In this document: one piece after another, positions 1-23,371 of the stretch
How positions within the stretch are numbered: position 1 is the first letter of the stretch
Layout of the letters: the number at the start of each line of letters is the position of its first letter
Source: Eledone cirrhosa
Lineage: Eukaryota
Direction: 5' to 3'
DNA length: 64,000 nt
Assembly: GCA_964016885.1 (NCBI GenBank)
Contig: OZ024741.1
Location: forward strand, 262,012,001-262,076,000
Notes under the pieces: model-generated
Seen by the model: the letters and a program-made list of their open reading frames with translations, nothing else
Databases searched by the model: none
What the model was told of the DNA's origin: nothing
Translations under genes and position numbers: made by a program

Positions 1-115
1 TTCACAATTTATGATTACACAATATTTTATATTCTCATCTGTAATAGAATTTTAATTAAATTAAATTTATAGGTTAACTAACATTTAAATTAAATTAATT
101 TCTAAAATAATGTTA

Positions 116-2557
116 TTAATTAGGTTTATAATATTTAAATGTTTTTTTTAGTTTATGATTACACGATATAATTAATTCCTGTCGTTTATTTAATAGGATA
201 TCCTTAGATTTCATTATTTCAAATAGTTCTTGGGAACATAATCTACATTCATTTCTATTATTTTGATAAGGGGTGGCTCTTTTGAGCACACTCCAGGTCA
301 AATCATATTCTATATTCTTATTTTTATAACTATTGATTTTTTCTGCTAGAGATGTTGTATTAGCCAGTGCGGCATTTTTAAAACTATGCTTGTGGGTATT
401 AAACCTTGTCTTAAAATTGTTAGAGGTAGCTCCTATATATGAGCAAATAGAATCTTTAGTTTTAACATTACATTTATAGACTATGTTGTTAACAAGACAA
501 TTCCCTTTTAATGGGCAGTTTGCTTTGTTTCTACAGTTACAACCTTTCGTTAATTCTGTATTTGAGGAGATATTATGGTTAATTTGATGTACTGGTGGTA
601 TACTTATGGTTTTCTTACATTTATATGCATTATAGGCACTTATATTTTGTTTTATGTTATTTGTTGTAGAGTATGAGAATTTAACTGTAGACCTATTTAA
701 GATCTGATGGTATTTGTGGTTTGGCGGGAAGTTTTTCTCTAGGATATAAAAAAAATTTTTAGCAATATTATCCTTAATTTGTAAATTAAATGGAGCATTA
801 TACCAGGTAACCCGTCTATTACGGTTTCTATGTTGTTTATTATTTTTATTATTTTTATAGGTTGTATCGTGATGTTTACTAGGAGGATTAATGTTAATGA
901 TCTCACCACAACTATTTTTAGTTATATTTGTAGATTTAGGTGTTTTATCCTTTTTATTAGGAGTTTTATTATTAATATTTATTAGAGTTGTATGATGAGT
1001 AGTTTTTTGAGAGTTACTATATTTTATATTAGAAGATTTGGTATTTTGGGGTATAGTGTGGGTGGCATTTAGGTGTGTACTTTTCATTTGGTGTTTGTTG
1101 GTAATATTAGGTTGTATGCTTTTAGTATTTTTAGTAGAAGGTATATATTCTAATCTATTTTTGTGGCCACTTCTATCTAGAGCTTCGTTATAGAAGGTCG
1201 CATTTTTATCAAATACATCTTGGTTAGAAGAAAGGTTAGAAATTCTAAGTGATATATTATATGCAAGGTTTTTAAGGATAGATTTAGGGTGATTAGATTG
1301 TGAGTGTATGTAATGTAAGTTTTGGTTTGGTTTATGGTAAGGTTGGTAGATACCCGTAGCTAAATCTAAAGTTATATCTAGGAAATTTACTACTTTACTT
1401 GTTTTTTCAAAAGTAATATGAAGATTATAATAGTCTTTAAGGAAAGTTCTAATATGTTTTTTGTTTTTTTCAATTTCTGAAAGGCTAAGGTTGTTAGAAA
1501 GAAGAAGACAGTCATCACGATATAAACCACCTTTGAGGTGGGGAAAGGAGGCATTTATGTTGAAAAGGAGAAAGAGGCCCACAAGATCAGTAATTTGGGC
1601 GGAATCGCTTGAACCCATAGTAATATCAAATAGATTACTATATGTGTTTCTGGTCCAGTATTCATTCTGAAATTCAATAAGTGTTAGTCTAGCATGTGTA
1701 ATAATATTAATGTCATCCAAAGTTAAGTTAGATCTATTTTTAGCAAATATCAATGCTTTGTTCAGGAGTATAGGTGATATAGAAGAGTAGTAATTATCTA
1801 TATGAAATTGTAGAAATGAAGCAGAAGATTTACATCTAATATTTTTAAACCAGTTAATTACCTGGGAGGTGTTTTCCCAGAGTGGTAAAATAACGTGTTT
1901 TCTTATTTGTGGGATGACTCTATCCAGAATTTTTTTGCTAATTATTCCAATATCTGATTTGGAGGGACATATAAGTCTAATAGAAGGATTTGAGTTAAAG
2001 TTTGATTTATGATCCTTCAGGTTGAAGTGTGGTCTTTTCAATGCCAAAGGTTCAGTTCTATCTTCAATGTTTAGTTTTTTTACTATGTTGTGTGTTTTGT
2101 TGTTGATGTTGGTGAGTGACGCATTATTAGATTTTTTATAATTTTTTCTGAGTTCTTTATATATGAACTCATTATAATGTTCAATATCCATATGATACAA
2201 GTTACCAGTTTTGTCCGAGTGGACATGGATTTTTTTAGACTTTTTTAGGTCCAATAGGGTAGAATCAAGGTCCTTTTGAAAGACGGATTTATACTTTTTA
2301 AATTTGAGGTGTTTAATTAAATTAAAAAGGTCTTTCTCGAAGTCTTCAAGTAAAAAGTTGTGTGGTGGATTCTTGTAAGTATTGAAATCATACATATATT
2401 TCCGATCTGCTTGTTTAGATTTTTTATCGAAGTGGTAGGCTCTCCATCTAACCCTTCTGATAAAATTATTAGTTTTTTGAATCATAAGGAGTAAGAAGTC
2501 ATCCTTAGAAGGTATTGGTATGTTTTTTAAAGAGGTTCCCAAATATTGTTTTTCCAT
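116..2557 (-). CDS. Penelope-like element (Naiad-like) RT + GIY-YIG endonuclease, copy 1 (813 aa from first ATG)
   Basis: Uninterrupted ORF. N-terminal SLKNIPIP..FIRRVRWRAYHF, DKT motif, RT motifs (FHIDNYYSSI, ITMGSSDSAQ, GLYRDD, FLDITL), WYNAPF, CNCxxxxxCPLxGxC linker, VY..YIGAT..FKTRF..H, CRLC..E, LLNKR. The track start at 2578 is a TTG; the first ATG is 7 codons later. Confidence 0.93.
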   Translation of the reverse strand: MEKQYLGTSLKNIPIPSKDDFLLLMIQKTNNFIRRVRWRAYHFDKKSKQADRKYMYDFNTYKNPPHNFLLEDFEKDLFNLIKHLKFKKYKSVFQKDLDSTLLDLKKSKKIHVHSDKTGNLYHMDIEHYNEFIYKELRKNYKKSNNASLTNINNKTHNIVKKLNIEDRTEPLALKRPHFNLKDHKSNFNSNPSIRLICPSKSDIGIISKKILDRVIPQIRKHVILPLWENTSQVINWFKNIRCKSSASFLQFHIDNYYSSISPILLNKALIFAKNRSNLTLDDINIITHARLTLIEFQNEYWTRNTYSNLFDITMGSSDSAQITDLVGLFLLFNINASFPHLKGGLYRDDCLLLSNNLSLSEIEKNKKHIRTFLKDYYNLHITFEKTSKVVNFLDITLDLATGIYQPYHKPNQNLHYIHSQSNHPKSILKNLAYNISLRISNLSSNQDVFDKNATFYNEALDRSGHKNRLEYIPSTKNTKSIQPNITNKHQMKSTHLNATHTIPQNTKSSNIKYSNSQKTTHHTTLININNKTPNKKDKTPKSTNITKNSCGEIININPPSKHHDTTYKNNKNNKQHRNRNRRVTWYNAPFNLQIKDNIAKNFFYILEKNFPPNHKYHQILNRSTVKFSYSTTNNIKQNISAYNAYKCKKTISIPPVHQINHNISSNTELTKGCNCRNKANCPLKGNCLVNNIVYKCNVKTKDSICSYIGATSNNFKTRFNTHKHSFKNAALANTTSLAEKINSYKNKNIEYDLTWSVLKRATPYQNNRNECRLCSQELFEIMKSKDILLNKRQELIISCNHKLKKTFKYYKPN

Positions 2558-2907
2558 TGTGATATGGATGATGGACAATTGAAAGAGCTCAACTAAATGT
2601 ATATGGGTTTATAAAATCATACATATATATGTATATACACAAATATAAAATTAATACACACATACAGTACAAAAATACGAATATTTCCGTGAAAATAGGA
2701 GCAAAATTATGTAGATAAATCTACCAAGAGTTTACGGTAGTGTCCAATCCGTATGAAGAACTCAATGTATTCCGGATATCATGGAAAGAAGAGATGTAAT
2801 GAAAAATCACTTTCGGTGAAAGATAAACGGTATACAGAGTCAAGATAAAATATTAAACAAATAATGAATAAAACAATGAAACAGTTCCTTATATTAAACA
2901 AAAAAAG

Positions 2908-3061
2908 TTCATTATTTAACGATCGTTTCTAGGATATATATGTGTTAGAATTGGTATGCATATTCAACAGATCTATGTACAAAATTATACAGAATTATAC
3001 AAACTATCAAGATTAAATATACATACCAACACATATATACGCCGTCTTCAGAAATAATGAA
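2908..3061 (-). ncRNA. Type I hammerhead ribozyme with long stem II (PLE copy 1)
   Basis: Reverse complement of 15842-15995. Confidence 0.8.
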
Positions 3062-3659
3062 ATATATTTATTGATAATAACAACAATTCAAAATTTCAGG
3101 TCCGTTTGGGAACAAAATTGACCAATGAAAATACAAAAGGTTTTATGCCGTTCGGTGTGTGTATATACATGTAACTACCCTTACACATATTTTACAAAAA
3201 TGTATGCTCAACATGTATACGCATACCAAAAGGATGGATGCAAATACAAAATTTCAAGGTTAATGTCTCTGTAAGTTTATAATGCACAGATAAGATGCGT
3301 ATAGACACATAAATATGAAATAAGTGTATACACATATTCTCATACTCACACATATCCGTACAATCACACACACGCGCGCGTATATGCATAAACATACACA
3401 TAATTACGAACATACAAACACACACACACCCCCACTCACATATATATATATGTGGATATCATAAGCACATGGATATTAATTCACTCACATAAACACTGCC
3501 ACACACATTTAGATCAAGATACAGAAATTAGGTGGGAGGGGGGAGAGGTCAGTATTCAACGGTTTGGGCAGACTGCTTATTATAGATGTATCTATAAACT
3601 AAGAAAATAAAAAATAAAAATTAAAAGGAAAGAAAAGAAAAAGAAAAGAAAAAAGAAAT

Positions 3660-3670
3660 ATATCAAGAAA

Positions 3671-3701
<31 letters not shown>

Positions 3702-3706
3702 CATAC

Positions 3707-3739
<33 letters not shown>

Positions 3740-3845
3740 AACACACACATACATATACACACATCCACACTTAGAACATACATACACACACATATATAAA
3801 CATATACATATACTCACATACACACATATACACACATACATATAA

Positions 3846-3896
<51 letters not shown>

Positions 3897-4438
3897 TACA
3901 CATATAATCACACATACTATATAGACACACATATATATACACACATACACGCACATATACATACACATACATACTTATATACATACAGATATACACATAC
4001 ATACCTATATATACACACAAATACATACAGACATACATACATACATACACACAAATACTTACGCATCCATATATCGGTATATACATACAAACACCACTAC
4101 ACTCTCACACAACTCAGACATACAAAGAAAAAGGTATATACCTATACACATATACATATACAAATAGAGATACATATACATATATATATATACATATATA
4201 TACACATACATATATACATATACATATATATATATATATATACATACACATATACACACACATACATACATACACATACATACATGTACACACACATACA
4301 TATACATACATACACACATACACACATACATATATAGTCATACACACACATACACCTACACGAACATACACATACACATATATAAAGATATATATACACA
4401 CACACACATACACACACACACATATATATAAAAAATAA

Positions 4439-4493
<55 letters not shown>

Positions 4494-4826
4494 CATATAC
4501 ATACACACATACATAAACATATATGTACATACATAGACATACATACATACATATACACATATATATACATATATATATACACACATAGACACATACATAC
4601 ATACATACACAACATACATACACACACATATATACTCATACATAGAATTAGATATATATTCATACATACATACGCACTTACATATACTCATATATACAAA
4701 TACATACGCATCCATATATGCGTATATACATACAAACACCACTACACCCTCACACAACTCAGACATACAAAGAAAAAGGCATATACATATACATATATAC
4801 ACACATTAATAGAGATATATATACAC

Positions 4827-4857
<31 letters not shown>

Positions 4858-5066
4858 CATTTATATATATACACCCACACACACATACAACCATAAACAC
4901 ACATACAAATACACACATACACATATATATACACATACATATATATACACACACACAAAAAACAGACATACACATATATATTTTTTTACACACATATATA
5001 CACATATATATACATATACACACCCTCACATATACACACATACACATAAGTTATATTATAATAATA

Positions 5067-5109
<43 letters not shown>

Positions 5110-5348
5110 CGAATATAGACATATATACACACATAGATATACATATATATATACATATACACACACACACACACACACTCACATATATATGTGCGCATAC
5201 GTACATATATACACATACACACATATACTCGTAAACACATACATGTGCATACATGCACATACACACATATACCCACATAGATACGAAGATAGACATATAA
5301 ATAGAGAGACATACATATATATACACACACATATATACATACATACAT

Positions 5349-5393
<45 letters not shown>

Positions 5394-5600
5394 CATACAC
5401 ACATACACGCCCACGCGCATATACACATATACATATATATATACATACACACATACACATACACATATATATACATATGCATATATACACATATATATAT
5501 ACATACACACATATATATACACACAATCTTACATTCTTATTTGCATGCGCATATATGTATTTTTATATTCAGATATAAATACCCAAACATATATACACCT
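3660..5600. repeat. Mosaic (TA)n/(CA)n/(CATA)n microsatellite inside the PLE unit
   Basis: The same mosaic recurs at ~10320-12240 and, inverted, at ~19990-21860 and 14669-15230. Confidence 0.95.
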
Positions 5601-6233
5601 ACCTACATATATATTCTTTCATACATACACGCTTACAAACACAGATGATAATAGTATGGGGGAAAGGGGGGGGGGGGGGTTGGAGAAGGGGATTATAGTA
5701 AATATATGTTTCAAGAAACATAGAATATTATCTGTATCTGGATCCAATGTATGTTTTTACATAGTTTCAGTGTTAGGAAATACAAGAAATAAGGCAAAAT
5801 TTATGCATTTCAAAATAAATAAGTATACCATTAATTATATGTTAACTAAACTAAAGATAGTTAACATATTGATTTCTAAGGTGTAAATTAGTTAGGTTTA
5901 TAATATTTGAAGCAGAATTTTGAAGTTAAATAGTAGTAGAGTATTAATTATAGTATAACTAAATTAAAGTTAATAACGTTATGGTATCAATATTAGGAAA
6001 TGAATTTAGTAATAGGGAAAAAAACAAATAAAGTATTACATCGGTAGTAGAATATAAATTATAGGTTAACTAAATTAAAAATTATATATTAATTTCTATA
6101 GTATATGTTAATTAGGTATATAATAAATAAAACAGATATTGTATTTTATCAATAGCAGAATATAATTATATGCAAATAGAAATCAAAATTAATACATATA
6201 CATATACATATACATACACATACATATATATAC

Positions 6234-6282
<49 letters not shown>

Positions 6283-6769
6283 TACACATACATATACATA
6301 CATACATATACATATTTTTTCAAAAATTGCAAAGAATATATTAACTAGGTATACATCCAAAACACATCCCATTCTATGATTACATGACATTCTGCAATCC
6401 GTCTGTATAAGGATACTAATTTTAAGCCAATTAAATTAAATTTTAGGTTGACTAAATTTAAAACCAAATTATAAATATATTTCTAAAATGTATATTAATT
6501 AGGTCTATAATACTAAAAATTATTTCTCTGTCATTGGATACACGATATTTTGTTATATTTTATCTGTAAAGGAATTTTAATAAAAGGTTTAAATAAATTA
6601 AAATTAATCTATAAATTAAATTACTAAGTATATATTAGTAATATTTAAAGGTTTTTCACAATTTATGATTACACAATATTTTATATTCTCATCTGTAATA
6701 GAATTTTAATTAAATTAAATTTATAGGTTAACTAACATTTAAATTAAATTAATTTCTAAAATAATGTTA

Positions 6770-9211
6770 TTAATTAGGTTTATAATATTTAAATGTTTTT
6801 TTTAGTTTATGATTACACGATATAATTAATTCCTGTCGTTTATTTAATAGGATATCCTTAGATTTCATTATTTCAAATAGTTCTTGGGAACATAATCTAC
6901 ATTCATTTCTATTATTTTGATAAGGGGTGGCTCTTTTGAGCACACTCCAGGTCAAATCATATTCTATATTCTTATTTTTATAACTATTGATTTTTTCTGC
7001 TAGAGATGTTGTATTAGCCAGTGCGGCATTTTTAAAACTATGCTTGTGGGTATTAAACCTTGTCTTAAAATTGTTAGAGGTAGCTCCTATATATGAGCAA
7101 ATAGAATCTTTAGTTTTAACATTACATTTATAGACTATGTTGTTAACAAGACAATTCCCTTTTAATGGGCAGTTTGCTTTGTTTCTACAGTTACAACCTT
7201 TCGTTAATTCTGTATTTGAGGAGATATTATGGTTAATTTGATGTACTGGTGGTATACTTATGGTTTTCTTACATTTATATGCATTATAGGCACTTATATT
7301 TTGTTTTATGTTATTTGTTGTAGAGTATGAGAATTTAACTGTAGACCTATTTAAGATCTGATGGTATTTGTGGTTTGGCGGGAAGTTTTTCTCTAGGATA
7401 TAAAAAAATTTTTTAGCAATATTATCCTTAATTTGTAAATTAAATGGAGCATTATACCAGGTAACCCGTCTATTACGGTTTCTATGTTGTTTATTATTTT
7501 TATTATTTTTATAGGTTGTATCGTGATGTTTACTAGGAGGATTAATGTTAATGATCTCACCACAACTATTTTTAGTTATATTTGTAGATTTAGGTGTTTT
7601 ATCCTTTTTATTAGGAGTTTTATTATTAATATTTATTAGAGTTGTATGATGAGTAGTTTTTTGAGAGTTACTATATTTTATATTAGAAGATTTGGTATTT
7701 TGGGGTATAGTGTGGGTGGCATTTAGGTGTGTACTTTTCATTTGGTGTTTGTTGGTAATATTAGGTTGTATGCTTTTAGTATTTTTAGTAGAAGGTATAT
7801 ATTCTAATCTATTTTTGTGGCCACTTCTATCTAGAGCTTCGTTATAGAAGGTCGCATTTTTATCAAATACATCTTGGTTAGAAGAAAGGTTAGAAATTCT
7901 AAGTGATATATTATATGCAAGGTTTTTAAGGATAGATTTAGGGTGATTAGATTGTGAGTGTATGTAATGTAAGTTTTGGTTTGGTTTATGGTAAGGTTGG
8001 TAGATACCCGTAGCTAAATCTAAAGTTATATCTAGGAAATTTACTACTTTACTTGTTTTTTCAAAAGTAATATGAAGATTATAATAGTCTTTAAGGAAAG
8101 TTCTAATATGTTTTTTGTTTTTTTCAATTTCTGAAAGGCTAAGGTTGTTAGAAAGAAGAAGACAGTCATCACGATATAAACCACCTTTGAGGTGGGGAAA
8201 GGAGGCATTTATGTTGAAAAGGAGAAAGAGGCCCACAAGATCAGTAATTTGGGCGGAATCGCTTGAACCCATAGTAATATCAAATAGATTACTATATGTG
8301 TTTCTGGTCCAGTATTCATTCTGAAATTCAATAAGTGTTAGTCTAGCATGTGTAATAATATTAATGTCATCCAAAGTTAAGTTAGATCTATTTTTAGCAA
8401 ATATCAATGCTTTGTTCAGGAGTATAGGTGATATAGAAGAGTAGTAATTATCTATATGAAATTGTAGAAATGAAGCAGAAGATTTACATCTAATATTTTT
8501 AAACCAGTTAATTACCTGGGAGGTGTTTTCCCAGAGTGGTAAAATAACGTGTTTTCTTATTTGTGGGATGACTCTATCCAGAATTTTTTTGCTAATTATT
8601 CCAATATCTGATTTGGAGGGACATATAAGTCTAATAGAAGGATTTGAGTTAAAGTTTGATTTATGATCCTTCAGGTTGAAGTGTGGTCTTTTCAATGCCA
8701 AAGGTTCAGTTCTATCTTCAATGTTTAGTTTTTTTACTATGTTGTGTGTTTTGTTGTTGATGTTGGTGAGTGACGCATTATTAGATTTTTTATAATTTTT
8801 TCTGAGTTCTTTATATATGAACTCATTATAATGTTCAATATCCATATGATACAAGTTACCAGTTTTGTCCGAGTGGACATGGATTTTTTTAGACTTTTTT
8901 AGGTCCAATAGGGTAGAATCAAGGTCCTTTTGAAAGACGGATTTATACTTTTTAAATTTGAGGTGTTTAATTAAATTAAAAAGGTCTTTCTCGAAGTCTT
9001 CAAGTAAAAAGTTGTGTGGTGGATTCTTGTAAGTATTGAAATCATACATATATTTCCGATCTGCTTGTTTAGATTTTTTATCGAAGTGGTAGGCTCTCCA
9101 TCTAACCCTTCTGATAAAATTATTAGTTTTTTGAATCATAAGGAGTAAGAAGTCATCCTTAGAAGGTATTGGTATGTTTTTTAAAGAGGTTCCCAAATAT
9201 TGTTTTTCCAT
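6770..9211 (-). CDS. Penelope-like element RT + GIY-YIG endonuclease, copy 2
   Basis: Translation matches copy 1 except one N/K change (IAKNFF vs IAKKFF); offset 6654 bp. Confidence 0.93.
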   Translation of the reverse strand: MEKQYLGTSLKNIPIPSKDDFLLLMIQKTNNFIRRVRWRAYHFDKKSKQADRKYMYDFNTYKNPPHNFLLEDFEKDLFNLIKHLKFKKYKSVFQKDLDSTLLDLKKSKKIHVHSDKTGNLYHMDIEHYNEFIYKELRKNYKKSNNASLTNINNKTHNIVKKLNIEDRTEPLALKRPHFNLKDHKSNFNSNPSIRLICPSKSDIGIISKKILDRVIPQIRKHVILPLWENTSQVINWFKNIRCKSSASFLQFHIDNYYSSISPILLNKALIFAKNRSNLTLDDINIITHARLTLIEFQNEYWTRNTYSNLFDITMGSSDSAQITDLVGLFLLFNINASFPHLKGGLYRDDCLLLSNNLSLSEIEKNKKHIRTFLKDYYNLHITFEKTSKVVNFLDITLDLATGIYQPYHKPNQNLHYIHSQSNHPKSILKNLAYNISLRISNLSSNQDVFDKNATFYNEALDRSGHKNRLEYIPSTKNTKSIQPNITNKHQMKSTHLNATHTIPQNTKSSNIKYSNSQKTTHHTTLININNKTPNKKDKTPKSTNITKNSCGEIININPPSKHHDTTYKNNKNNKQHRNRNRRVTWYNAPFNLQIKDNIAKKFFYILEKNFPPNHKYHQILNRSTVKFSYSTTNNIKQNISAYNAYKCKKTISIPPVHQINHNISSNTELTKGCNCRNKANCPLKGNCLVNNIVYKCNVKTKDSICSYIGATSNNFKTRFNTHKHSFKNAALANTTSLAEKINSYKNKNIEYDLTWSVLKRATPYQNNRNECRLCSQELFEIMKSKDILLNKRQELIISCNHKLKKTFKYYKPN

Positions 9212-9561
9212 TGTGATATGGATGATGGACAATTGAAAGAGCTCAACTAAATGTATATGGGTTTATAAAATCATACATATATATGTATATACACAAATAT
9301 AAAATTAATACACACATACAGTACAAAAATACGAATATTTCCGTGAAAATAGGAGCAAAATTATGTAGATAAATCTACCAAGAGTTTACGGTAGTGTCCA
9401 ATCCGTATGAAGAACTCAATGTATTCCGGATATCATGGAAAGAAGAGATGTAATGAAAAATCACTTTCGGTGAAAGATAAACGGTATACAGAGTCAAGAT
9501 AAAATATTAAACAAATAATGAATAAAACAATGAAACAGTTCCTTATATTAAACAAAAAAAG

Positions 9562-9715
9562 TTCATTATTTAACGATCGTTTCTAGGATATATATGTGTT
9601 AGAATTGGTATGCATATTCAACAGATCTATGTACAAAATTATACAGAATTATACAAACTATCAAGATTAAATATACATACCAACACATATATACGCCGTC
9701 TTCAGAAATAATGAA
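9562..9715 (-). ncRNA. Type I hammerhead ribozyme with long stem II (PLE copy 2)
   Basis: Reverse complement of 15842-15995. Confidence 0.8.
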
Positions 9716-10319
9716 ATATATTTATTGATAATAACAACAATTCAAAATTTCAGGTCCGTTTGGGAACAAAATTGACCAATGAAAATACAAAAGGTTTTAT
9801 GCCGTTCGGTGTGTGTATATACATGTAACTACCCTTACACATATTTTACAAAAATGTATGCTCAACATGTATACGCATACCAAAAGGATGGATGCAAATA
9901 CAAAATTTCAAGGTTAATGTCTCTGTAAGATTATAATGCACAGATAAGATGCGTATAGACACATAAATATGAAATAAGTGTATACACATATTCTCATACT
10001 CACACATATCCGTACAATCACACACACGCGCGCGTATATGCATAAACATACACATAATTACGAACATACAAACACACACACACCCCCACTCACATATATA
10101 TATATGTGGATATCATAAGCACATGGATATTAATTCACTCACATAAACACTGCCACACACATTTAGATCAAGATACAGAAATTAGGTGGGAGGGGGGAGA
10201 GGTCAGTATTCAACGGTTTGGGCAGACTGCTTATTATAGATGTATCTATAAACTAAGTAAATAAAAAATAAAAATTAAAAGGAAAGAAAAGAAAAAGAAA
10301 AGAAAAAAGAAATATATCA

Positions 10320-10324
10320 AGAAA

Positions 10325-10355
<31 letters not shown>

Positions 10356-10360
10356 CATAC

Positions 10361-10393
<33 letters not shown>

Positions 10394-10493
10394 AACACAC
10401 ACATACATATACACACATCCACACTTAGAACATACATACACACACATATATAAACATATACATATACATACATACACACATATACACACATAC

Positions 10494-10544
<51 letters not shown>

Positions 10545-11086
10545 TACACATATAATCACACATACTATATAGACACACATATATATACACACATACACGC
10601 ACATATACATACACATACATACTTATATACATACAGATATACACATACATACCTATATATACACACAAATACATACAGACATACATACATACATACACAC
10701 AAATACTTACGCATCCATATATCGGTATATACATACAAACACCACTACACTCTCACACAACTCAGACATACAAAGAAAAAGGTATATACCTATACACATA
10801 TACATATACAAATAGAGATACATATACATATATATATATACATATATATACACATACATATATACATATACATATATATATATATATATACATACACATA
10901 TACACACACATACATACATACACATACATACATGTACACACACATACATATACATACATACACACATACACACATACATATATAGTCATACACACACATA
11001 CACCTACACGAACATACACATACACATATATAAAGATATATATACACACACACACATACACACACACACATATATATAAAAAATAA

Positions 11087-11125
<39 letters not shown>

Positions 11126-11696
11126 CATATACATACACACATACATAAACATATATGTACATACATAGACATACATACATACATATACACATATATATAC
11201 ATATATATATACACACATAGACACATACATACATACATACACAACATACATACACACACATATATACTCATACATAGAATTAGATATATATTCATACATA
11301 CATACGCACTTACATATACTCATATATACAAATACATACGCATCCATATATGCGTATATACATACAAACACCACTACACCCTCACACAACTCAGACATAC
11401 AAAGAAAAAGGCATATACATATACATATATACACACATTAATAGAGATATATATACACATATATATATATATATATATATACACATACATTTATATATAT
11501 ACACCCACACACACATACAACCATAAACACACATACAAATACACACATACACATATATATACACATACATATATATACACACACACAAAAAACAGACATA
11601 CACATATATATTTTTTTACACACATATATACACATATATATACATATACACACCCTCACATATACACACATACACATAAGTTATATTATAATAATA

Positions 11697-11749
<53 letters not shown>

Positions 11750-11988
11750 CGAATATAGACATATATACACACATAGATATACATATATATATACATATAC
11801 ACACACACACACACACACTCACATATATATGTGCGCATACGTACATATATACACATACACACATATACTCGTAAACACATACATGTGCATACATGCACAT
11901 ACACACATATACCCACATAGATACGAAGATAGACATATAAATAGAGAGACATACATATATATACACACACATATATACATACATACAT

Positions 11989-12035
<47 letters not shown>

Positions 12036-12240
12036 CATACACACATACACGCCCACGCGCATATACACATATACATATATATATACATACACACATACAC
12101 ATACACATATATATACATATGCATATATACACATATATATATACATACACACATATATATACACACAATCTTACATTCTTATTTGCATGCGCATATATGT
12201 ATTTTTATATTCAGATATAAATACCCAAACATATATACAC
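10320..12240. repeat. Mosaic microsatellite inside the PLE unit
   Basis: Copy of 3660-5600. Confidence 0.95.
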
Positions 12241-12870
12241 CTACCTACATATATATTCTTTCATACATACACGCTTACAAACACAGATGATAATAGTATG
12301 GGGGAAAGGGGGGGGGGTGGAGAAGGGGATTATAGTAAATATATGTTTCAAGAAACATAGAATATTATCTGTATCTGGATCCAATGTATGTTTTTACATA
12401 GTTTCAGTGTTAGGAAATACAAGAAATAAGGCAAAATTTATGCATTTCAAAATAAATAAGTATACCATTAATTATATGTTAACTAAACTAAAGATAGTTA
12501 ACATATTGATTTCTAAGGTGTAAATTAGTTAGGTTTATAATATTTGAAGCAGAATTTTGAAGTTAAATAGTAGTAGAGTATTAATTATAGTATAACTAAA
12601 TTAAAGTTAATAACGTTATGGTATCAATATTAGGAAATGAATTTAGTAATAGGGAAAAAAACAAATAAAGTATTACATCGGTAGTAGAATATAAATTATA
12701 GGTTAACTAAATTAAAAATTATATATTAATTTCTATAGTATATGTTAATTAGGTATATAATAAATAAAACAGATATTGTATTTTATCAATAGCAGAATAT
12801 AATTATATGCAAATAGAAATCAAAATTAATACATATACATATACATATACATACACATACATATATATAC

Positions 12871-12919
<49 letters not shown>

Positions 12920-13406
12920 TACACATACATATACATACATACATATACATATTTTTTCAAAAATTGCAAAGAATATATTAACTAGGTATACATCCAAAAC
13001 ACATCCCATTCTATGATTACATGACATTCTGCAATCCGTCTGTATAAGGATACTAATTTTAAGCCAATTAAATTAAATTTTAGGTTGACTAAATTTAAAA
13101 CCAAATTATAAATATATTTCTAAAATGTATATTAATTAGGTCTATAATACTAAAAATTATTTCTCTGTCATTGGATACACGATATTTTGTTATATTTTAT
13201 CTGTAAAGGAATTTTAATAAAAGGTTTAAATAAATTAAAATTAATCTATAAATTAAATTACTAAGTATATATTAGTAATATTTAAAGGTTTTTCACAATT
13301 TATGATTACACAATATTTTATATTCTCATCTGTAATAGAATTTTAATTAAATTAAATTTATAGGTTAACTAACATTTAAATTAAATTAATTTCTAAAATA
13401 ATGTTA

Positions 13407-14636
13407 TTAATTAGGTTTATAATATTTAAATGTTTTTTTTAGTTTATGATTACACGATATAATTAATTCCTGTCGTTTATTTAATAGGATATCCTTAGAT
13501 TTCATTATTTCAAATAGTTCTTGGGAACATAATCTACATTCATTTCTATTATTTTGATAAGGGGTGGCTCTTTTGAGCACACTCCAGGTCAAATCATATT
13601 CTATATTCTTATTTTTATAACTATTGATTTTTTCTGCTAGAGATGTTGTATTAGCCAGTGCGGCATTTTTAAAACTATTTAGAGGTAGCTCCTATATATG
13701 AGCAAATAGAATCTTTAGTTTTAACATTACATTTATAGACTATGTTGTTAACAAGACAATTCCCTTTTAATGGGCAGTTTGCTTTGTTTCTACAGTTACA
13801 ACCTTTCGTTAATTCTGTATTTGAGGAGATATTATGGTTAATTTGATGTACTGGTGGTATACTTATGGTTTTCTTACATTTATATGCATTATAGGCACTT
13901 ATATTTTGTTTTATGTTATTTGTTGTAGAGTATGAGAATTTAACTGTAGACCTATTTAAGATTTGATGGTATTTGTGGTTTGGCGGGAAGTTTTTCTCTA
14001 GGATATAAAAAATTTTTTAGCAATATTATCCTTAATTTGTAAATTAAATGGAGCATTATACCAGGTAACCCGTCTATTACGGTTTCTATGTTGTTTATTA
14101 TTTTTATTATTTTTATAGGTTGTATCGTGATGTTTACTAGGAGGATTAATGTTAATGATCTCACCACAACTATTTTTAGTTATATTTGTAGATTTAGGTG
14201 TTTTATCCTTTTTATTAGGAGTTTTATTATTAATATTTATTAGAGTTGTATGATGAGTAGTTTTTTGAGAGTTACTATATTTTATATTAGAAGATTTGGT
14301 ATTTTGGGGTATAGTGTGGGTGGCATTTAGGTGTGTACTTTTCATTTGGTGTTTGTTGGTAATATTAGGTTGTATGCTTTTAGTATTTTTAGTAGAAGGT
14401 ATATATTCTAATCTATTTTTGTGGCCACTTCTATCTAGAGCTTCGTTATAGAAGGTCGCATTTTTATCAAATACATCTTGGTTAGAAGAAAGGTTAGAAA
14501 TTCTAAGTGATATATTATATGCAAGGTTTTTAAGGATAGATTTAGGGTGATTAGATTGTGAGTGTATGTAATGTAAGTTTTGGTTTGGTTTATGGTAAGG
14601 TTCGTAGATACCCGTAGCTAAATCTAAAGTTATATC
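13407..14636 (-). pseudogene. 5'-truncated, frameshifted copy of the PLE ORF (C-terminal half)
   Basis: Matches copy 1 positions ~116-1378. Has a 32-bp deletion at 13678/13679 in the endonuclease region, a 1-bp loss in the A/T run near 14010 and a few substitutions. Stops at the inversion junction. Confidence 0.92.
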
Positions 14637-14999
14637 TATGTATATGTATATAAATCTAAAGTTATATCATATGTATATGTATATATGTATGTGTATATAT
14701 ATGTATATATATATATGTATATGTATCTCTATTTGTATATGTATATGTGTATAGGTATATACCTTTTTCTTTGTATGTCTGAGTTGTGTGAGAGTGTAGT
14801 GGTGTTTGTATGTATATACCGATATATGGATGCGTAAGTATTTGTGTGTATGTATGTATGTATGTCTGTATGTATTTGTGTGTATATATAGGTATGTATG
14901 TGTATATCTGTATGTATATAAGTATGTATGTGTATGTATATGTGCGTGTATGTGTGTATATATATGTGTGTCTATATAGTATGTGTGATTATATGTGTA

Positions 15000-15068
<69 letters not shown>

Positions 15069-15168
15069 GTATGTGTGTATATGTGTGTATGTGTGTATAT
15101 GTATATGTTTATATATGTGTGTGTATGTATGTTCTAAGTGTGGATGTGTGTATATGTATGTGTGTGTT

Positions 15169-15201
<33 letters not shown>

Positions 15202-15841
15202 GTATGTATGTGTATATATATATATATATATTTTCTTGATATATTTCTTTTTTCTTTTCTTTTTCTTTTCTTTCCTTTTAATTTTTATTTTTTATTTTCT
15301 TAGTTTATAGATACATCTATAATAAGCAGTCTGCCCAAACCGTTGAATACTGACCTCTCCCCCCCCTCCCACCTAATTTCTGTATCTTGATCTAAATGTG
15401 TGTGGCAGTGTTTATGTGAGTGAATTAATATCCATGTGCTTATGATATCCACATATATATATATGTGAGTGGGGGTGTGTGTGTGTTTGTATGTTCGTAA
15501 TTATGTTATGTTTATGCATATACGCGCGCGTGTGTGTGATTGTACGGATATGTGTGAGTATGAGAATATGTGTATACACTTATTTCATATTTATGTGTCT
15601 ATACGCATCTTATCTGTGCATTATAAACTTACAGAGACATTAACCTTGAAATTTTGTATTTGCATCCATCCTTTTGGTATGCGTATACATGTTGAGCATA
15701 CATTTTTGTAAAATATGTGTAAGGGTAGTTACATGTATATACACACACCGAACGGCATAAAACCTTTTGTATTTTTATTGGTCAATTTTGTTCCCAAACG
15801 GACCTGAAATTTTGAATTGTTGTTATTATCAATAAATATAT

Positions 15842-15995
15842 TTCATTATTTCTGAAGACGGCGTATATATGTGTTGGTATGTATATTTAATCTTGATAGT
15901 TTGTATAATTCTGTATAATTTTGTACATAGATCTGTTGAATATGCATACCAATTCTAACACATATATATCCTAGAAACGATCGTTAAATAATGAA
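15842..15995 (+). ncRNA. Type I hammerhead ribozyme with long stem II (5' pLTR)
   Basis: Stem I TTCATTATTT/AAATAATGAA (10 perfect bp), core CTGAAGA...GAAA, palindromic stem III ACGATCGT, GUU cleavage triplet (cut after 15985), ~115-nt stem II insert with TATATATGTGTT/AACACATATATA and GGTATGTATATT/AATATGCATACC pairings. Confidence 0.82.
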
Positions 15996-16345
15996 CTTTT
16001 TTTGTTTAATATAAGGAACTGTTTCATTGTTTTATTCATTATTTGTTTAATATTTTATCTTGACTCTGTATACCGTTTATCTTTCACCGAAAGTGATTTT
16101 TTATTACATCTCTTCTTTCCATGATATCCGGAATACATTGAGTTCTTCATACGGATTGGACACTACCGTAAACTCTTGGTAGATTTATCTACATAATTTT
16201 GCTCCTATTTTCACGGAAATATTCGTATTTTTGTACTGTATGTGTGTATTAATTTTATATTTGTGTATATACATATATATGTATGATTTTATAAACCCAT
16301 ATACATTTAGTTGAGCTCTTTCAATTGTCCATCATCCATATCACA

Positions 16346-18787
16346 ATGGAAAAACAATATTTGGGAACCTCTTTAAAAAACATACCAATACCTTCTAAGG
16401 ATGACTTCTTACTCCTTATGATTCAAAAAACTAATAATTTTATCAGAAGGGTTAGATGGAGAGCCTACCACTTCGATAAAAAATCTAAACAAGCAGATCG
16501 GAAATATATGTATGATTTCAATACTTACAAGAATCCACCACACAACTTTTTACTTGAAGACTTCGAGAAAGACCTTTTTAATTTAATTAAACACCTCAAA
16601 TTTAAAAAGTATAAATCCGTCTTTCAAAAGGACCTTGATTCTACCCTATTGGACCTAAAAAAGTCTAAAAAAATCCATGTCCACTCGGACAAAACTGGTA
16701 ACTTGTATCATATGGATATTGAACATTATAATGAGTTCATATATAAAGAACTCAGAAAAAATTATAAAAAATCTAATAATGCGTCACTCACCAACATCAA
16801 CAACAAAACACACAACATAGTAAAAAAACTAAACATTGAAGATAGAACTGAACCTTTGGCATTGAAAAGACCACACTTCAACCTGAAGGATCATAAATCA
16901 AACTTTAACTCAAATCCTTCTATTAGACTTATATGTCCCTCCAAATCAGATATTGGAATAATTAGCAAAAAAATTCTGGATAGAGTCATCCCACAAATAA
17001 GAAAACACGTTATTTTACCACTCTGGGAAAACACCTCCCAGGTAATTAACTGGTTTAAAAATATTAGATGTAAATCTTCTGCTTCATTTCTACAATTTCA
17101 TATAGATAATTACTACTCTTCTATATCACCTATACTCCTGAACAAAGCATTGATATTTGCTAAAAATAGATCTAACTTAACTTTGGATGACATTAATATT
17201 ATTACACATGCTAGACTAACACTTATTGAATTTCAGAATGAATACTGGACCAGAAACACATATAGTAATCTATTTGATATTACTATGGGTTCAAGCGATT
17301 CCGCCCAAATTACTGATCTTGTGGGCCTCTTTCTCCTTTTCAACATAAATGCCTCCTTTCCCCACCTCAAAGGTGGTTTATATCGTGATGACTGTCTTCT
17401 TCTTTCTAACAACCTTAGCCTTTCAGAAATTGAAAAAAACAAAAAACATATTAGAACTTTCCTTAAAGACTATTATAATCTTCATATTACTTTTGAAAAA
17501 ACAAGTAAAGTAGTAAATTTCCTAGATATAACTTTAGATTTAGCTACGGGTATCTACCAACCTTACCATAAACCAAACCAAAACTTACATTACATACACT
17601 CACAATCTAATCACCCTAAATCTATCCTTAAAAACCTTGCATATAATATATCACTTAGAATTTCTAACCTTTCTTCTAACCAAGATGTATTTGATAAAAA
17701 TGCGACCTTCTATAACGAAGCTCTAGATAGAAGTGGCCACAAAAATAGATTAGAATATATACCTTCTACTAAAAATACTAAAAGCATACAACCTAATATT
17801 ACCAACAAACACCAAATGAAAAGTACACACCTAAATGCCACCCACACTATACCCCAAAATACCAAATCTTCTAATATAAAATATAGTAACTCTCAAAAAA
17901 CTACTCATCATACAACTCTAATAAATATTAATAATAAAACTCCTAATAAAAAGGATAAAACACCTAAATCTACAAATATAACTAAAAATAGTTGTGGTGA
18001 GATCATTAACATTAATCCTCCTAGTAAACATCACGATACAACCTATAAAAATAATAAAAATAATAAACAACATAGAAACCGTAATAGACGGGTTACCTGG
18101 TATAATGCTCCATTTAATTTACAAATTAAGGATAATATTGCTAAAAAATTTTTTTATATCCTAGAGAAAAACTTCCCGCCAAACCACAAATACCATCAGA
18201 TCTTAAATAGGTCTACAGTTAAATTCTCATACTCTACAACAAATAACATAAAACAAAATATAAGTGCCTATAATGCATATAAATGTAAGAAAACCATAAG
18301 TATACCACCAGTACATCAAATTAACCATAATATCTCCTCAAATACAGAATTAACGAAAGGTTGTAACTGTAGAAACAAAGCAAACTGCCCATTAAAAGGG
18401 AATTGTCTTGTTAACAACATAGTCTATAAATGTAATGTTAAAACTAAAGATTCTATTTGCTCATATATAGGAGCTACCTCTAACAATTTTAAGACAAGGT
18501 TTAATACCCACAAGCATAGTTTTAAAAATGCCGCACTGGCTAATACAACATCTCTAGCAGAAAAAATCAATAGTTATAAAAATAAGAATATAGAATATGA
18601 TTTGACCTGGAGTGTGCTCAAAAGAGCCACCCCTTATCAAAATAATAGAAATGAATGTAGATTATGTTCCCAAGAACTATTTGAAATAATGAAATCTAAG
18701 GATATCCTATTAAATAAACGACAGGAATTAATTATATCGTGTAATCATAAACTAAAAAAAACATTTAAATATTATAAACCTAATTAA
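16346..18787 (+). CDS. Penelope-like element RT + GIY-YIG endonuclease, copy 3 (inverted arm)
   Basis: Same translation as copy 2. YRDD at 17381-17392, ATG at 16346, TAA stop. Confidence 0.93.
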   Translation: MEKQYLGTSLKNIPIPSKDDFLLLMIQKTNNFIRRVRWRAYHFDKKSKQADRKYMYDFNTYKNPPHNFLLEDFEKDLFNLIKHLKFKKYKSVFQKDLDSTLLDLKKSKKIHVHSDKTGNLYHMDIEHYNEFIYKELRKNYKKSNNASLTNINNKTHNIVKKLNIEDRTEPLALKRPHFNLKDHKSNFNSNPSIRLICPSKSDIGIISKKILDRVIPQIRKHVILPLWENTSQVINWFKNIRCKSSASFLQFHIDNYYSSISPILLNKALIFAKNRSNLTLDDINIITHARLTLIEFQNEYWTRNTYSNLFDITMGSSDSAQITDLVGLFLLFNINASFPHLKGGLYRDDCLLLSNNLSLSEIEKNKKHIRTFLKDYYNLHITFEKTSKVVNFLDITLDLATGIYQPYHKPNQNLHYIHSQSNHPKSILKNLAYNISLRISNLSSNQDVFDKNATFYNEALDRSGHKNRLEYIPSTKNTKSIQPNITNKHQMKSTHLNATHTIPQNTKSSNIKYSNSQKTTHHTTLININNKTPNKKDKTPKSTNITKNSCGEIININPPSKHHDTTYKNNKNNKQHRNRNRRVTWYNAPFNLQIKDNIAKKFFYILEKNFPPNHKYHQILNRSTVKFSYSTTNNIKQNISAYNAYKCKKTISIPPVHQINHNISSNTELTKGCNCRNKANCPLKGNCLVNNIVYKCNVKTKDSICSYIGATSNNFKTRFNTHKHSFKNAALANTTSLAEKINSYKNKNIEYDLTWSVLKRATPYQNNRNECRLCSQELFEIMKSKDILLNKRQELIISCNHKLKKTFKYYKPN

Positions 18788-19274
18788 TAACATTATTTTA
18801 GAAATTAATTTAATTTAAATGTTAGTTAACCTATAAATTTAATTTAATTAAAATTCTATTACAGATGAGAATATAAAATATTGTGTAATCATAAATTGTG
18901 AAAAACCTTTAAATATTACTAATATATACTTAGTAATTTAATTTATAGATTAATTTTAATTTATTTAAACCTTTTATTAAAATTCCTTTACAGATAAAAT
19001 ATAACAAAATATCGTGTATCCAATGACAGAGAAATAATTTTTAGTATTATAGACCTAATTAATATACATTTTAGAAATATATTTATAATTTGGTTTTAAA
19101 TTTAGTCAACCTAAAATTTAATTTAATTGGCTTAAAATTAGTATCCTTATACAGACGGATTGCAGAATGTCATGTAATCATAGAATGGGATGTGTTTTGG
19201 ATGTATACCTAGTTAATATATTCTTTGCAATTTTTGAAAAAATATGTATATGTATGTATGTATATGTATGTGTA

Positions 19275-19323
<49 letters not shown>

Positions 19324-19730
19324 GTATATATATGTATGTGTATGTATATGTATATGTATATGTATTAATTTTGATTTCTATTTGCATATAATTATATTCT
19401 GCTATTGATAAAATACAATATCTGTTTTATTTATTATATACCTAATTAACATATACTATAGAAATTAATATATAATTTTTAATTTAGTTAACCTATAATT
19501 TATATTCTACTACCGATGTAATACTTTATTTGTTTTTTTCCCTATTACTAAATTCATTTCCTAATATTGATACCATAACGTTATTAACTTTAATTTAGTT
19601 ATACTATAATTAATACTCTACTACTATTTAACTTCAAAATTCTGCTTCAAATATTATAAACCTAACTAATTTACACCTTAGAAATCAATATGTTAACTAT
19701 CTTTAGTTTAGTTAACATATAATTAATGGT
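18734..19730 (+). repeat. Degenerate ~130-160-bp repeats overlapping the PLE stop codon and 3' UTR
   Basis: ATATCGTGTAATCATAAA-like starts at 18734, 18878, 19009 and 19167; ACCTAATTAA..TAGAAAT..TTAGTTAACCT-like motifs at ~18778, 19053, 19440 and 19660. Confidence 0.75.
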
Positions 19731-19989
19731 ATACTTATTTATTTTGAAATGCATAAATTTTGCCTTATTTCTTGTATTTCCTAACACTGAAACTATGTAA
19801 AAACATACATTGGATCCAGATACAGATAATATTCTATGTTTCTTGAAACATATATTTACTATAATCCCCTTCTCCAACCCCCCCCCCCTTTCCCCCATAC
19901 TATTATCATCTGTGTTTGTAAGCGTGTATGTATGAAAGAATATATATGTAGGTAGGTGTATATATGTTTGGGTATTTATATCTGAATAT

Positions 19990-20160
19990 AAAAATACATA
20001 TATGCGCATGCAAATAAGAATGTAAGATTGTGTGTATATATATGTGTGTATGTATATATATATGTGTATATATGCATATGTATATATATGTGTATGTGTA
20101 TGTGTGTATGTATATATATATGTATATGTGTATATGCGCGTGGGCGTGTATGTGTGTATG

Positions 20161-20205
<45 letters not shown>

Positions 20206-20444
20206 ATGTATGTATGTATATATGTGTGTGTATATATATGTATGTCTCTCTATTTATATGTCTATCTTCGTATCTATGTGGGTATATGTGTGTATGTGCA
20301 TGTATGCACATGTATGTGTTTACGAGTATATGTGTGTATGTGTATATATGTACGTATGCGCACATATATATGTGAGTGTGTGTGTGTGTGTGTGTATATG
20401 TATATATATATGTATATCTATGTGTGTATATATGTCTATATTCG

Positions 20445-20487
<43 letters not shown>

Positions 20488-20696
20488 TATTATTATAATA
20501 TAACTTATGTGTATGTGTGTATATGTGAGGGTGTGTATATGTATATATATGTGTATATATGTGTGTAAAAAAATATATATGTGTATGTCTGTTTTTTGTG
20601 TGTGTGTATATATATGTATGTGTATATATATGTGTATGTGTGTATTTGTATGTGTGTTTATGGTTGTATGTGTGTGTGGGTGTATATATATAAATG

Positions 20697-20727
<31 letters not shown>

Positions 20728-21060
20728 GTGTATATATATCTCTATTAATGTGTGTATATATGTATATGTATATGCCTTTTTCTTTGTATGTCTGAGTTGT
20801 GTGAGGGTGTAGTGGTGTTTGTATGTATATACGCATATATGGATGCGTATGTATTTGTATATATGAGTATATGTAAGTGCGTATGTATGTATGAATATAT
20901 ATCTAATTCTATGTATGAGTATATATGTGTGTGTATGTATGTTGTGTATGTATGTATGTATGTGTCTATGTGTGTATATATATATGTATATATATGTGTA
21001 TATGTATGTATGTATGTCTATGTATGTACATATATGTTTATGTATGTGTGTATGTATATG

Positions 21061-21091
<31 letters not shown>

Positions 21092-21635
21092 CTTTATTTT
21101 TTATATATATGTGTGTGTGTGTATGTGTGTGTGTGTATATATATCTTTATATATGTGTATGTGTATGTTCGTGTAGGTGTATGTGTGTGTATGACTATAT
21201 ATGTATGTGTGTATGTGTGTATGTATGTATATGTATGTGTGTGTACATGTATGTATGTGTATGTATGTATGTGTGTGTATATGTGTATGTATATATATAT
21301 ATATATATGTATATGTATATATGTATGTGTATATATATGTATATATATATATGTATATGTATCTCTATTTGTATATGTATATGTGTATAGGTATATACCT
21401 TTTTCTTTGTATGTCTGAGTTGTGTGAGAGTGTAGTGGTGTTTGTATGTATATACCGATATATGGATGCGTAAGTATTTGTGTGTATGTATGTATGTATG
21501 TCTGTATGTATTTGTGTGTATATATAGGTATGTATGTGTATATCTGTATGTATATAAGTATGTATGTGTATGTATATGTGCGTGTATGTGTGTATATATA
21601 TGTGTGTCTATATAGTATGTGTGATTATATGTGTA

Positions 21636-21692
<57 letters not shown>

Positions 21693-21792
21693 GTATGTGT
21701 GTATATGTGTGTATGTGTGTATATGTATATGTTTATATATGTGTGTGTATGTATGTTCTAAGTGTGGATGTGTGTATATGTATGTGTGTGTT

Positions 21793-21827
<35 letters not shown>

Positions 21828-21832
21828 GTATG

Positions 21833-21860
<28 letters not shown>
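19990..21860. repeat. Mosaic (TA)n/(TG)n/(TATG)n microsatellite in the PLE 3' UTR
   Basis: Inverted copy of 3660-5600. Confidence 0.95.
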
Positions 21861-21863
<3 letters not shown>

Positions 21864-22472
21864 TTTCTTGATATATTTCTTTTTTCTTTTCTTTTTCTTT
21901 TCTTTCCTTTTAATTTTTATTTTTTATTTTCTTAGTTTATAGATACATCTATAATAAGCAGTCTGCCCAAACCGTTGAATACTGACCTCTCCCCCCTCCC
22001 ACCTAATTTCTGTATCTTGATCTAAATGTGTGTGGCAGTGTTTATGTGAGTGAATTAATATCCATGTGCTTATGATATCCACATATATATATATGTGAGT
22101 GGGGGTGTGTGTGTGTTTGTATGTTCGTAATTATGTGTATGTTTATGCATATACGCGCGCGTGTGTGTGATTGTACGGATATGTGTGAGTATGAGAATAT
22201 GTGTATACACTTATTTCATATTTATGTGTCTATACGCATCTTATCTGTGCATTATAAACTTACAGAGACATTAACCTTGAAATTTTGTATTTGCATCCAT
22301 CCTTTTGGTATGCGTATACATGTTGAGCATACATTTTTGTAAAATATGTGTAAGGGTAGTTACATGTATATACACACACCGAACGGCATAAAACCTTTTG
22401 TATTTTCATTGGTCAATTTTGTTCCCAAACGGACCTGAAATTTTGAATTGTTGTTATTATCAATAAATATAT

Positions 22473-22626
22473 TTCATTATTTCTGAAGACGGCGTATATA
22501 TGTGTTGGTATGTATATTTAATCTTGATAGTTTGTATAATTCTGTATAATTTTGTACATAGATCTGTTGAATATGCATACCAATTCTAACACATATATAT
22601 CCTAGAAACGATCGTTAAATAATGAA
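22473..22626 (+). ncRNA. Type I hammerhead ribozyme with long stem II (3' pLTR)
   Basis: Same sequence as 15842-15995; the element ends 73 nt after the predicted cut site (22616). Confidence 0.82.
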
Positions 22627-22711
22627 CTTTTTTTGTTTAATATAAGGAACTGTTTCATTGTTTTATTCATTATTTGTTTAATATTTTATATATATATATA
22701 TATGTATATGC

Positions 22712-23142
22712 ATGCTACTGTACGTCTGTATACATATATGTATGTACGTATACATACATACTTACATTTAAGTAAGTGCCGTACTAAGAGTGAGAAATGA
22801 AATTTCGTTTTCATTTTATTACAACTCATCGTTCTCGGTGCGCCTGACCGATTTAACTCACTCGATATGCAAATTAGGCTGCTCAGCCGTTAATTTTCAT
22901 AAGGAAAGTATATACTTTCGAACGTTCAACTATCTGGCACATGGGTATACGGTGCTGATGATAGCTAACAAGCTTGAAACTAGTACATCGTTCCTGTGTC
23001 AGTGTTGAACAAAAAGGTGACGTGGTTGCCTTAACACCGTGCGGCATAAATTCAGGCTGTTCAGTTTGTTTACAAACGAACAAAGCGGGCGCTATAATAA
23101 GCGTCCGCTAAACTGATGCGTACATATATATATGTGTACCTG

Positions 23143-23211
<69 letters not shown>

Positions 23212-23320
23212 TACTGTACGTCTGTATACATATATGTATGTACGTATACATACATACTTACATTTAAGTAAGTGCCGTACTAAGAGTGAGAAATGAAATT
23301 TCGTTTTCATTTTATTACAA

Positions 23321-23323: not shown

Positions 23324-23371
<48 letters not shown>

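Follow-up and report, generated by a model that had tools for sequence, protein, structure and literature searches.

The 64,000-nucleotide window considered here (C2:262,012,001-262,076,000 of the 3.0-Gb assembly of Eledone cirrhosa) holds a head-to-head array of a Penelope-like element (PLE), in which units of about 6.65 kb lie in tandem on the minus strand and again, inverted, on the plus strand. The pattern of starts and ends in thousands of its relatives suggests copying of one RNA, probably a circle made by the hammerhead ribozyme that each unit appears to carry, by two reverse transcriptases (RTs). On the assembled DNA sequence, which is the evidence base for the array, the block is probably one insertion of a Hydra-clade PLE, in which break ends in a (TA)n tract primed reverse transcription on one RNA, likely a hammerhead-made circle, and some units were later recopied at the DNA level. 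Among the insertions that this young Hydra-type family normally produces, the array is a long one; a feature of this kind is already known, and its mechanism is unusually testable.

Positions in the unit are counted from the predicted hammerhead cut, the first base 3' of which (window 15986) is +1, with negative numbers upstream. Self-alignment of window 1-31,247 gave a minus-strand tandem with a period of ~6,654 and an inverted plus arm (14639-22689), at ~99.2% identity. With the neighbouring DNA included, the left (minus) arm extends 3,957 bases beyond the window, to window position -3957, and the whole array measures 26.6 kb, with 2.8 + 1.2 units head-to-head in (TA)n. An initial annotation of the window had described this nearly identical pair of arms, with a minus arm of at least 2.2 units that is now found to be longer; it had also seen that the arms start at different points of the unit, the left one inside the open reading frame (ORF; unit position 1538) and the right one inside a microsatellite (~5320). 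Its forecast that the left arm would end some 73 nt past a hammerhead in (TA)n held for the tract and failed for the distance: the left arm ends at +210, and it is the right arm that ends at +73, both in (TA)n. Unit length is 6,631-6,664 nt at this locus and ~6.05-7.2 kb in related arrays. The head-to-head junction carries a templated duplication of 18 nt, and templated insertions of this sort are typical of polymerase theta end joining; the inner partial copy of the left arm has a 32-nt deletion. The flanks of the array are two adjoining parts of one small tandem element that the array divides at the element's (TA)n tract, so that the repeated unit contains no flanking DNA, the presence of which would have pointed to segmental duplication. 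A candidate long target-site duplication (319 bp, 99.4%, on both flanks) was rejected, as the match is between two neighbouring units of this small host element.

Outer ends and start points across the family

Exact matching across the genome gave 1,945 ends at +73 in (TA)n, together with 2,261 copies that run past +73 and 303 that run past +210. The difference implies 1,958 ends at +210, a ratio to the +73 ends near 1:1; a direct search with the +210 pattern gave 4,126 matches, the excess probably arising because it takes in more distant subfamilies too. Of the 44 +73 ends on C1:0-99.7 Mb, 33 have a facing +210 end no more than 45 kb away, where random places give a mean of 1.0, and both ends were present in 11 of the 13 regions mapped in detail, the other two having one arm only. 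Pairing of +73 with +210 is the rule of the family, and the window locus is therefore neither unique nor a segmental duplication. The proposal that priming occurred from both sides of one break agrees with this arrangement, since every arm terminates, within (TA)n, at one or other of two fixed unit positions.

The inner ends bear on the template. The 33 paired insertions have 66 arms, of which 23 begin between -137 and -144, for the most part on the A in TCATTA (-140); 13 of the remainder stop earlier and 30 go further, so that the proportion is 23/53 among arms that reach -130. Later hammerhead passes were assessed on the first 100 of the 303 junction passes: -130 is reached in 83, not one of which stops between -130 and -150 (upper bound 3.5%; Fisher p ~1e-11 for the comparison with the first hammerhead). 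The -140 site is most simply read as the 5' end of an RNA, because RT should stall where it enters a helix rather than where it leaves one, and because no AG precedes the site. None of the 14 insertions with a -140 arm has a long partner (p ~2e-4), from which it appears that both arms read one RNA. The palindromic minis, ~550 bp long and present in 14 of the 33 sampled insertions, consist of two arms that run from -140, one to +73 and the other to +210. They carry haplotypes of several long subfamilies, and the idea that they are a single self-propagating lineage was rejected on that ground. Minis occur on C1 and at C6:49,517,208-49,517,764, and could be taken for miniature inverted-repeat transposable elements.

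A second cluster of stops lies at +1 to +14, where 6 of 100 full-pass arms (in five insertions, one with both arms there) end against 0.5 expected; this would be a sign of cutting in cells. The other full-pass arms continue across the junction, with their ends scattered. Copying of long arms from a one-unit transcript that starts at -140 would require completed units to stop at -140 or +1, and the family-wide footprint accordingly favours a circular or endless template for the long arms. Arms of more than one unit are common: among the first 100 of the 303 internal junctions, classed by eye, 73 arms have one, nine have two and three have three. At C2:36,290,961-36,329,726 lies an insertion of 38.8 kb in which each arm comprises 2.9 units and the variation is close to star-like, with five single-unit variants, one shared, and a marker found in only two other places in the genome; it is a better test locus than the window array.

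Evidence from these relatives may be drawn together in the following scheme. Transcription would start at -140. A transcript with one hammerhead, from the outer end of an arm, would stay uncut, and both RTs would run off its 5' end to give the minis; in a transcript with two, the hammerheads would pair via palindromic stem III, both would be cut, and ligation would yield a 6.6-kb circle. A circle has no 5' end, which would allow RT to pass the junction repeatedly until it falls off. The need for hammerhead pairing would in this manner sort the transcripts, uncut leaders leading to minis and ligated circles to rolling copying. A dimeric RT would start from the two fixed sites, one per break strand, each break end in (TA)n priming complementary DNA (cDNA) at +73 or +210, and the free cDNA ends would be joined by microhomology-type repair. 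At least part of the window array was probably homogenised or duplicated after insertion. The full proposition, that an autonomous animal retrotransposon spreads via a 6.6-kb protein-coding circular RNA, with sorting by hammerhead pairing and a dimeric RT rolling from two sites, is more tentative, and we hold it with as much reserve as conviction. If it is true, a circular-RNA scheme accounts for the pseudo-long terminal repeats (pseudo-LTRs), the tail, the inversion and the multi-unit arrays of PLEs.

Several considerations count against this scheme. The circle, the start site and the cleavage are all deduced from DNA. The samples were the first places listed, with arms classed by eye from alignment tables; the arms on C1 come from the 33 paired of the 44 +73 ends; and the -140 interval was set after the minis had been seen. 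The -140 site departs from an initiator consensus by one mismatch. Passage of a second junction (12/85, 14%) and of a third (3/12, 25%), again judged by eye, exceeds what a constant fall-off of 0.4 per kb would give, which is only 7% per unit. Finally, not all arrays look like the product of pure rolling-circle copying. At C1:93.6 Mb, which supplies 9 of the 12 sites in the sample described below where one unit alone retains the family base, the two tandem left units share nine derived sites that the right arm lacks, and at C6:49.5 Mb alternate units (3 and 5) are near-twins; these two patterns imply duplication after insertion.

DNA-level copying and alternative explanations

If all units of an array are copied from a single template they should be equally related, and at the window locus they are not. 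Genome-wide, the bases 991C, 1114C and 2214G are each found just three times, once in every full unit of this array, and the inner partial unit, which covers only one of the three private sites, has the family base there (2214). Of the unit pairs at the locus, the most similar is formed by the right unit and the inner full unit of the left arm, with five events between them against 12-20 for the other five pairs. Private changes number nine in 6.4 kb of partial units and seven in 19.9 kb of full units (p ~0.006). Markers common to both arms that were tested in two other insertions recur elsewhere, unlike the private changes of the window array. Another supposed member of its sub-lineage, a third, at C4:180.6 Mb, turned out to belong to another subfamily.

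The nature of one private change adds to this. The window has three open 813-aa ORFs which, as the initial annotation reported, differ by one residue (K601N). All three have His at position 252, in RT motif A, a position occupied by Asp in 117 of 118 homologs and gapped in the other one; genome-wide, the His form occurs three times and the Asp form 432 times. The Asp at this position is the first catalytic aspartate of RT, and its replacement means that the three proteins of the array are predicted to be RT-dead. Later DNA-level copying at the locus is suggested by the fact that the three full ORFs share private changes, including Asp252His, with the inner partial copy keeping a family base. 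It seems to us rather probable, from the distribution of these variants, that at least one DNA-level event took place here, and most likely the RT-dead allele arose in one unit and was then copied to the others; alternatively, a dead donor was mobilised in trans, with a template switch or back-mutation. The window array in either case shows a predicted catalytically dead RT allele filling an array. The data are compatible with units having been added and with their having only been overwritten. The window locus is a poor witness for circle templating: multi-pass copying of a circle, as first proposed for it, is supported for the family, and the units of the locus itself are not equally related. 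The DNA-level duplication that had been named as the alternative has likely shaped the locus too, as later copying and not as segmental duplication. Since some arrays are rewritten by DNA-level copying after insertion, conclusions drawn from one alone may be misleading.

Across 23 insertions with 109 variable columns, there were 52 new singletons, 12 singletons in which the odd unit has the family base, nine singletons seen elsewhere, four shared variants and 32 ties. These counts bear on the two foremost rivals, both of which we regard as unlikely and to the same degree. According to the first, there is no circle, and the long arms were made on linear transcripts that are long, uncut and read through tandem donor arrays. 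Linear RNA that stays uncut is used in this family too, as the -140 minis show, and the array at C6 has a site common to its outermost unit and the opposite arm. For the PLE PAc of Anolis, uncut RNA was the main substrate in vitro and messenger RNA of several copies has been proposed as template, and ends at the cut were absent from the RNA-seq data (Frangieh et al. 2024, PMC11167929), which weighs against a hammerhead-made circle, although that work concerns one PLE reconstituted in vitro. Read-through transcripts should nevertheless start at some -140 site, where, as noted, none of the 83 later passes stops. A single internal junction is all that most potential donors have (73 of 85 arms), and daughters could never outgrow their donors; no second long array has the marker of the C2:36.3 Mb insertion as several consecutive copies.

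The second rival holds that insertion yields about one unit per arm at most, further units being added by later unequal exchange or gene conversion. The shared derived sites at C1:93.6 Mb, the near-twins at C6:49.5 Mb and the greater closeness of the full units in the window all speak for it. However, variants within arrays are mostly private to one unit (the new singletons far outnumber the family-base and shared classes), and later growth leaves unaccounted for both the many arms of 1.0-1.4 units, with one junction crossed and scattered ends, and the occurrence of 2.9 units in both arms of one insertion.

A somewhat less probable proposal is that the template is a cut, unligated monomer, with RT making an exact jump from the monomer's 5' end back to the 3' end of the same molecule. 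The DNA product would be the same as from a circle, some arms do halt at +1 to +14, and end-to-end jumping is known for R2 RT. Against this, all 203 cut junctions matched genome-wide are of the same length and free of indels (197 exact, six with one substitution), and there is no sign of jumps to other RNAs, as the units of any one array all carry the same set of lineage variants. Misassembly or segmental duplication, for which it can be said that the units are >99% identical and that the block exceeds a typical accurate long read, is very improbable, given that the array terminates on both sides at the outer positions fixed in the family, that a templated insertion lies at its junction, that its units differ by variants of their own and include no flank DNA, that the flanks rejoin into one host element and that the same plan recurs genome-wide. 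One insertion by RT on a probably circular RNA, with subsequent recopying of units, remains the reading that we prefer.

The element and its relation to known systems

Both hallmarks of Penelope-like elements are present: a telomerase-related RT with a GIY-YIG endonuclease in a single ORF, and tandem/inverted insertion with a tail at one end. The predicted structure of the protein (mean predicted local distance difference test score, pLDDT, 84.8) has telomerase RTs as its top eight Foldseek matches (best E 1.5e-8), and the motifs YRDD and VY..YIG..R..H are conserved among homologs. A Pfam search with the single 813-aa protein gave no match, with GIY-YIG found in 3 of 61 aligned proteins; a PDB sequence search with the single protein gave nothing significant, and the profile matched one retron RT (E 0.002). 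Residues 477-572 (window 17774-18062), in the thumb-linker interval, form a low-confidence stretch of ~100 residues rich in Asn, Lys and Thr, which recalls the N-rich inserts of rotifer PLEs (PMC3846280).

Each unit has one hammerhead-like motif, in keeping with the single ribozyme first attributed to it: CUGAAGA, a long stem II and GAAACGAUCGUU. Its fold has z = -5.4, none of 200 shuffles being equally stable, and Rfam at gathering score gave no match to it. Two copies are predicted to pair via the 10-bp palindrome AACGAUCGUU. Downstream of the cut, no unusual fold was found (z = -1.3).

The Hydra clade is described by Craig et al. 2021 (PMC8557442) as having a C-terminal GIY-YIG, the motifs DKT, CxCX5C, CxxC and CxH, and (TA)n targets. 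The protein of the window has DKT at 115-117, CxCX5C at C673/C675/C681, CxxC at C771/C774 and CxH at C799/H801, and its endonuclease is C-terminal, with no conserved cysteine pair between VY and YIG (no CCHH). It shares with the clade a single ORF with RT followed by GIY-YIG, CxxC and CxH around E and N, and a canonical hammerhead core, which agrees with the Hydra table of that paper; of the insertion ends of the present family, 12 of the 12 inspected lie in (TA)n. In other respects it departs from the clade. The 6.6-kb unit, with its long internal microsatellite, exceeds by more than twofold the size of generally <3 kb, which is descriptive and not diagnostic; stem II is ~40 bp rather than one of the short stems in the table; and the RWK site is RWR here (among 118 homologs, K in 52 and R in 36). 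On these motifs, the element fits a Hydra-clade, endonuclease-positive PLE. Naiad/Chlamys identity was ruled out by the C-terminal endonuclease (theirs is N-terminal) and by the presence of a hammerhead.

PLE partial tandems have been described with an inverted 5'-truncated copy and a one-sided tail of 30-40 bp (PMC8557442, PMC3846280). The head-to-head layout and the tail at one end only are the same here; the tail is 137 nt, the arms comprise several full units, and the 1:1 pairing has been counted genome-wide. In PMC3846280 the inversion was attributed to an antisense template and self-priming on it; two fixed outer ends together with unrelated inner ends, as seen here, do not need this. 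The closest biochemical counterpart is PAc, a Poseidon element, for which, in PMC11167929, two internal RT starts 3' of the hammerhead bound the tail in vitro. It has in common with the present family two RT start sites, cutting and extension of both strands, a predicted dimer and the use of uncut RNA. For PAc, no difference in start site between the strands was reported, in contrast to one of each per insertion here, and the long arms here lack a 5'-end stop; the words 'circular' and 'rolling' do not occur in that paper.

Circular templates for PLE copying of more than a unit were tentatively proposed by Cervera and de la Pena 2014 (PMC4209133), who also discuss a dimeric mode of metazoan hammerheads with palindromic helix III. 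Hammerhead cutting, ligation to a circle, reverse transcription beyond the unit and dimeric hammerheads are all common to that model and ours. Circles have been shown for small non-coding retrozymes (PMC7229834, PMC5680766); the unit here is 6.6 kb and protein-coding, and its support is a genomic footprint rather than RNA. For retrozyme tandems, a 2026 preprint (10.64898/2026.07.22.740005) prefers local amplification. A literature search with thin coverage of subscription journals gave no paper testing a circular template for an autonomous PLE, and the origin of tandem/inverted PLE insertions and the role of the hammerhead are stated as open in PMC8557442 and PMC11167929. A young family with thousands of assembled insertions offers countable predictions, namely that two fixed RT starts are used 1:1, that run-off occurs at the first hammerhead only, and that later ones are crossed seamlessly. 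The circle idea of 2014 becomes directly testable, the primers and sites for an RNA test now being named.

Features of the window and neighbouring sequences

The features are listed in Table 1.

Table 1. Coordinates of the array and its parts in the window
Feature	Positions	Strand	Remarks
Left arm, in-window part	1..14638	-	5'-truncated unit (1538-6631) and full units; from self-alignment and neighbouring DNA
Head-to-head junction	14619..14668	.	Left-arm end, 12 nt of right-arm start, left arm's last 18 nt repeated, right arm; templated insertion
Right arm, 1.2 units	14669..22689	+	Partial unit starting in microsatellite, full unit (15986-22616), 73-nt tail
Complex (TA/TG) microsatellite within unit	20031..21863	+	Copies at 3671-5525, 10325-12167, 14669-15231
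+73 tail	22617..22689	+	One of two fixed outer ends in the family
Target	22690..23330	+	(TA)n tract, then small unrelated tandem element, whose other part adjoins the left end
813-aa ORF	16346..18787	+	Telomerase-like RT, then GIY-YIG endonuclease; Asp252His at base 17099
Second full ORF	6770..9211	-	Identical protein; Asp252His at base 8458
Third full ORF	116..2557	-	K601N; Asp252His at base 1804
5'-truncated ORF fragment	13407..14638	-	1-nt and 32-nt deletions; family base kept at unit position 2214
A at -140 from cut	15845..15845	+	Start point of short family members; putative transcription start
Type I hammerhead motif	15852..15985	+	Long stem II, palindromic stem III; predicted cut after 15985 (GUU)
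Outer hammerhead motif, right arm	22483..22616	+	
Internal hammerhead motif, left arm	9572..9705	-	
Internal hammerhead motif, left arm	2918..3051	-	

The small host element, at window 22702-23330 and -4830 to -3975, is ~480 bp long and is itself made of an inverted arm and tandem copies. It has a minimal hammerhead-like motif (22955-22985), with a palindromic stem III at its end, and looks like a non-LTR retrozyme. A further hammerhead-like motif (CUGAGGA ... GAAAC), with a closing stem, lies at 26562-26641 on the minus strand and is unrelated to the array. A metagenome scan for related loci found none. From 31247 to the end of the window (64000) there is a 16-bp satellite in at least 2,054 copies.

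Two observations concern other members of the family. The two arms often have nearly equal inner start positions, such as 870/867, 1286/1287 and 807/758, with near-equal starts at C2:345.12 Mb, C1:49.91 Mb, C6:44.57 Mb, C1:421.2 Mb and C3:110.7 Mb, as if both RTs had halted together or reached one RNA end. At C4:191,710,706-191,733,782, one two-armed insertion is present twice with an identical junction, through DNA-level duplication or as an assembly artefact; the first copy is cut off by a C-rich stretch of ~2 kb, at whose end lies another hammerhead-like motif.

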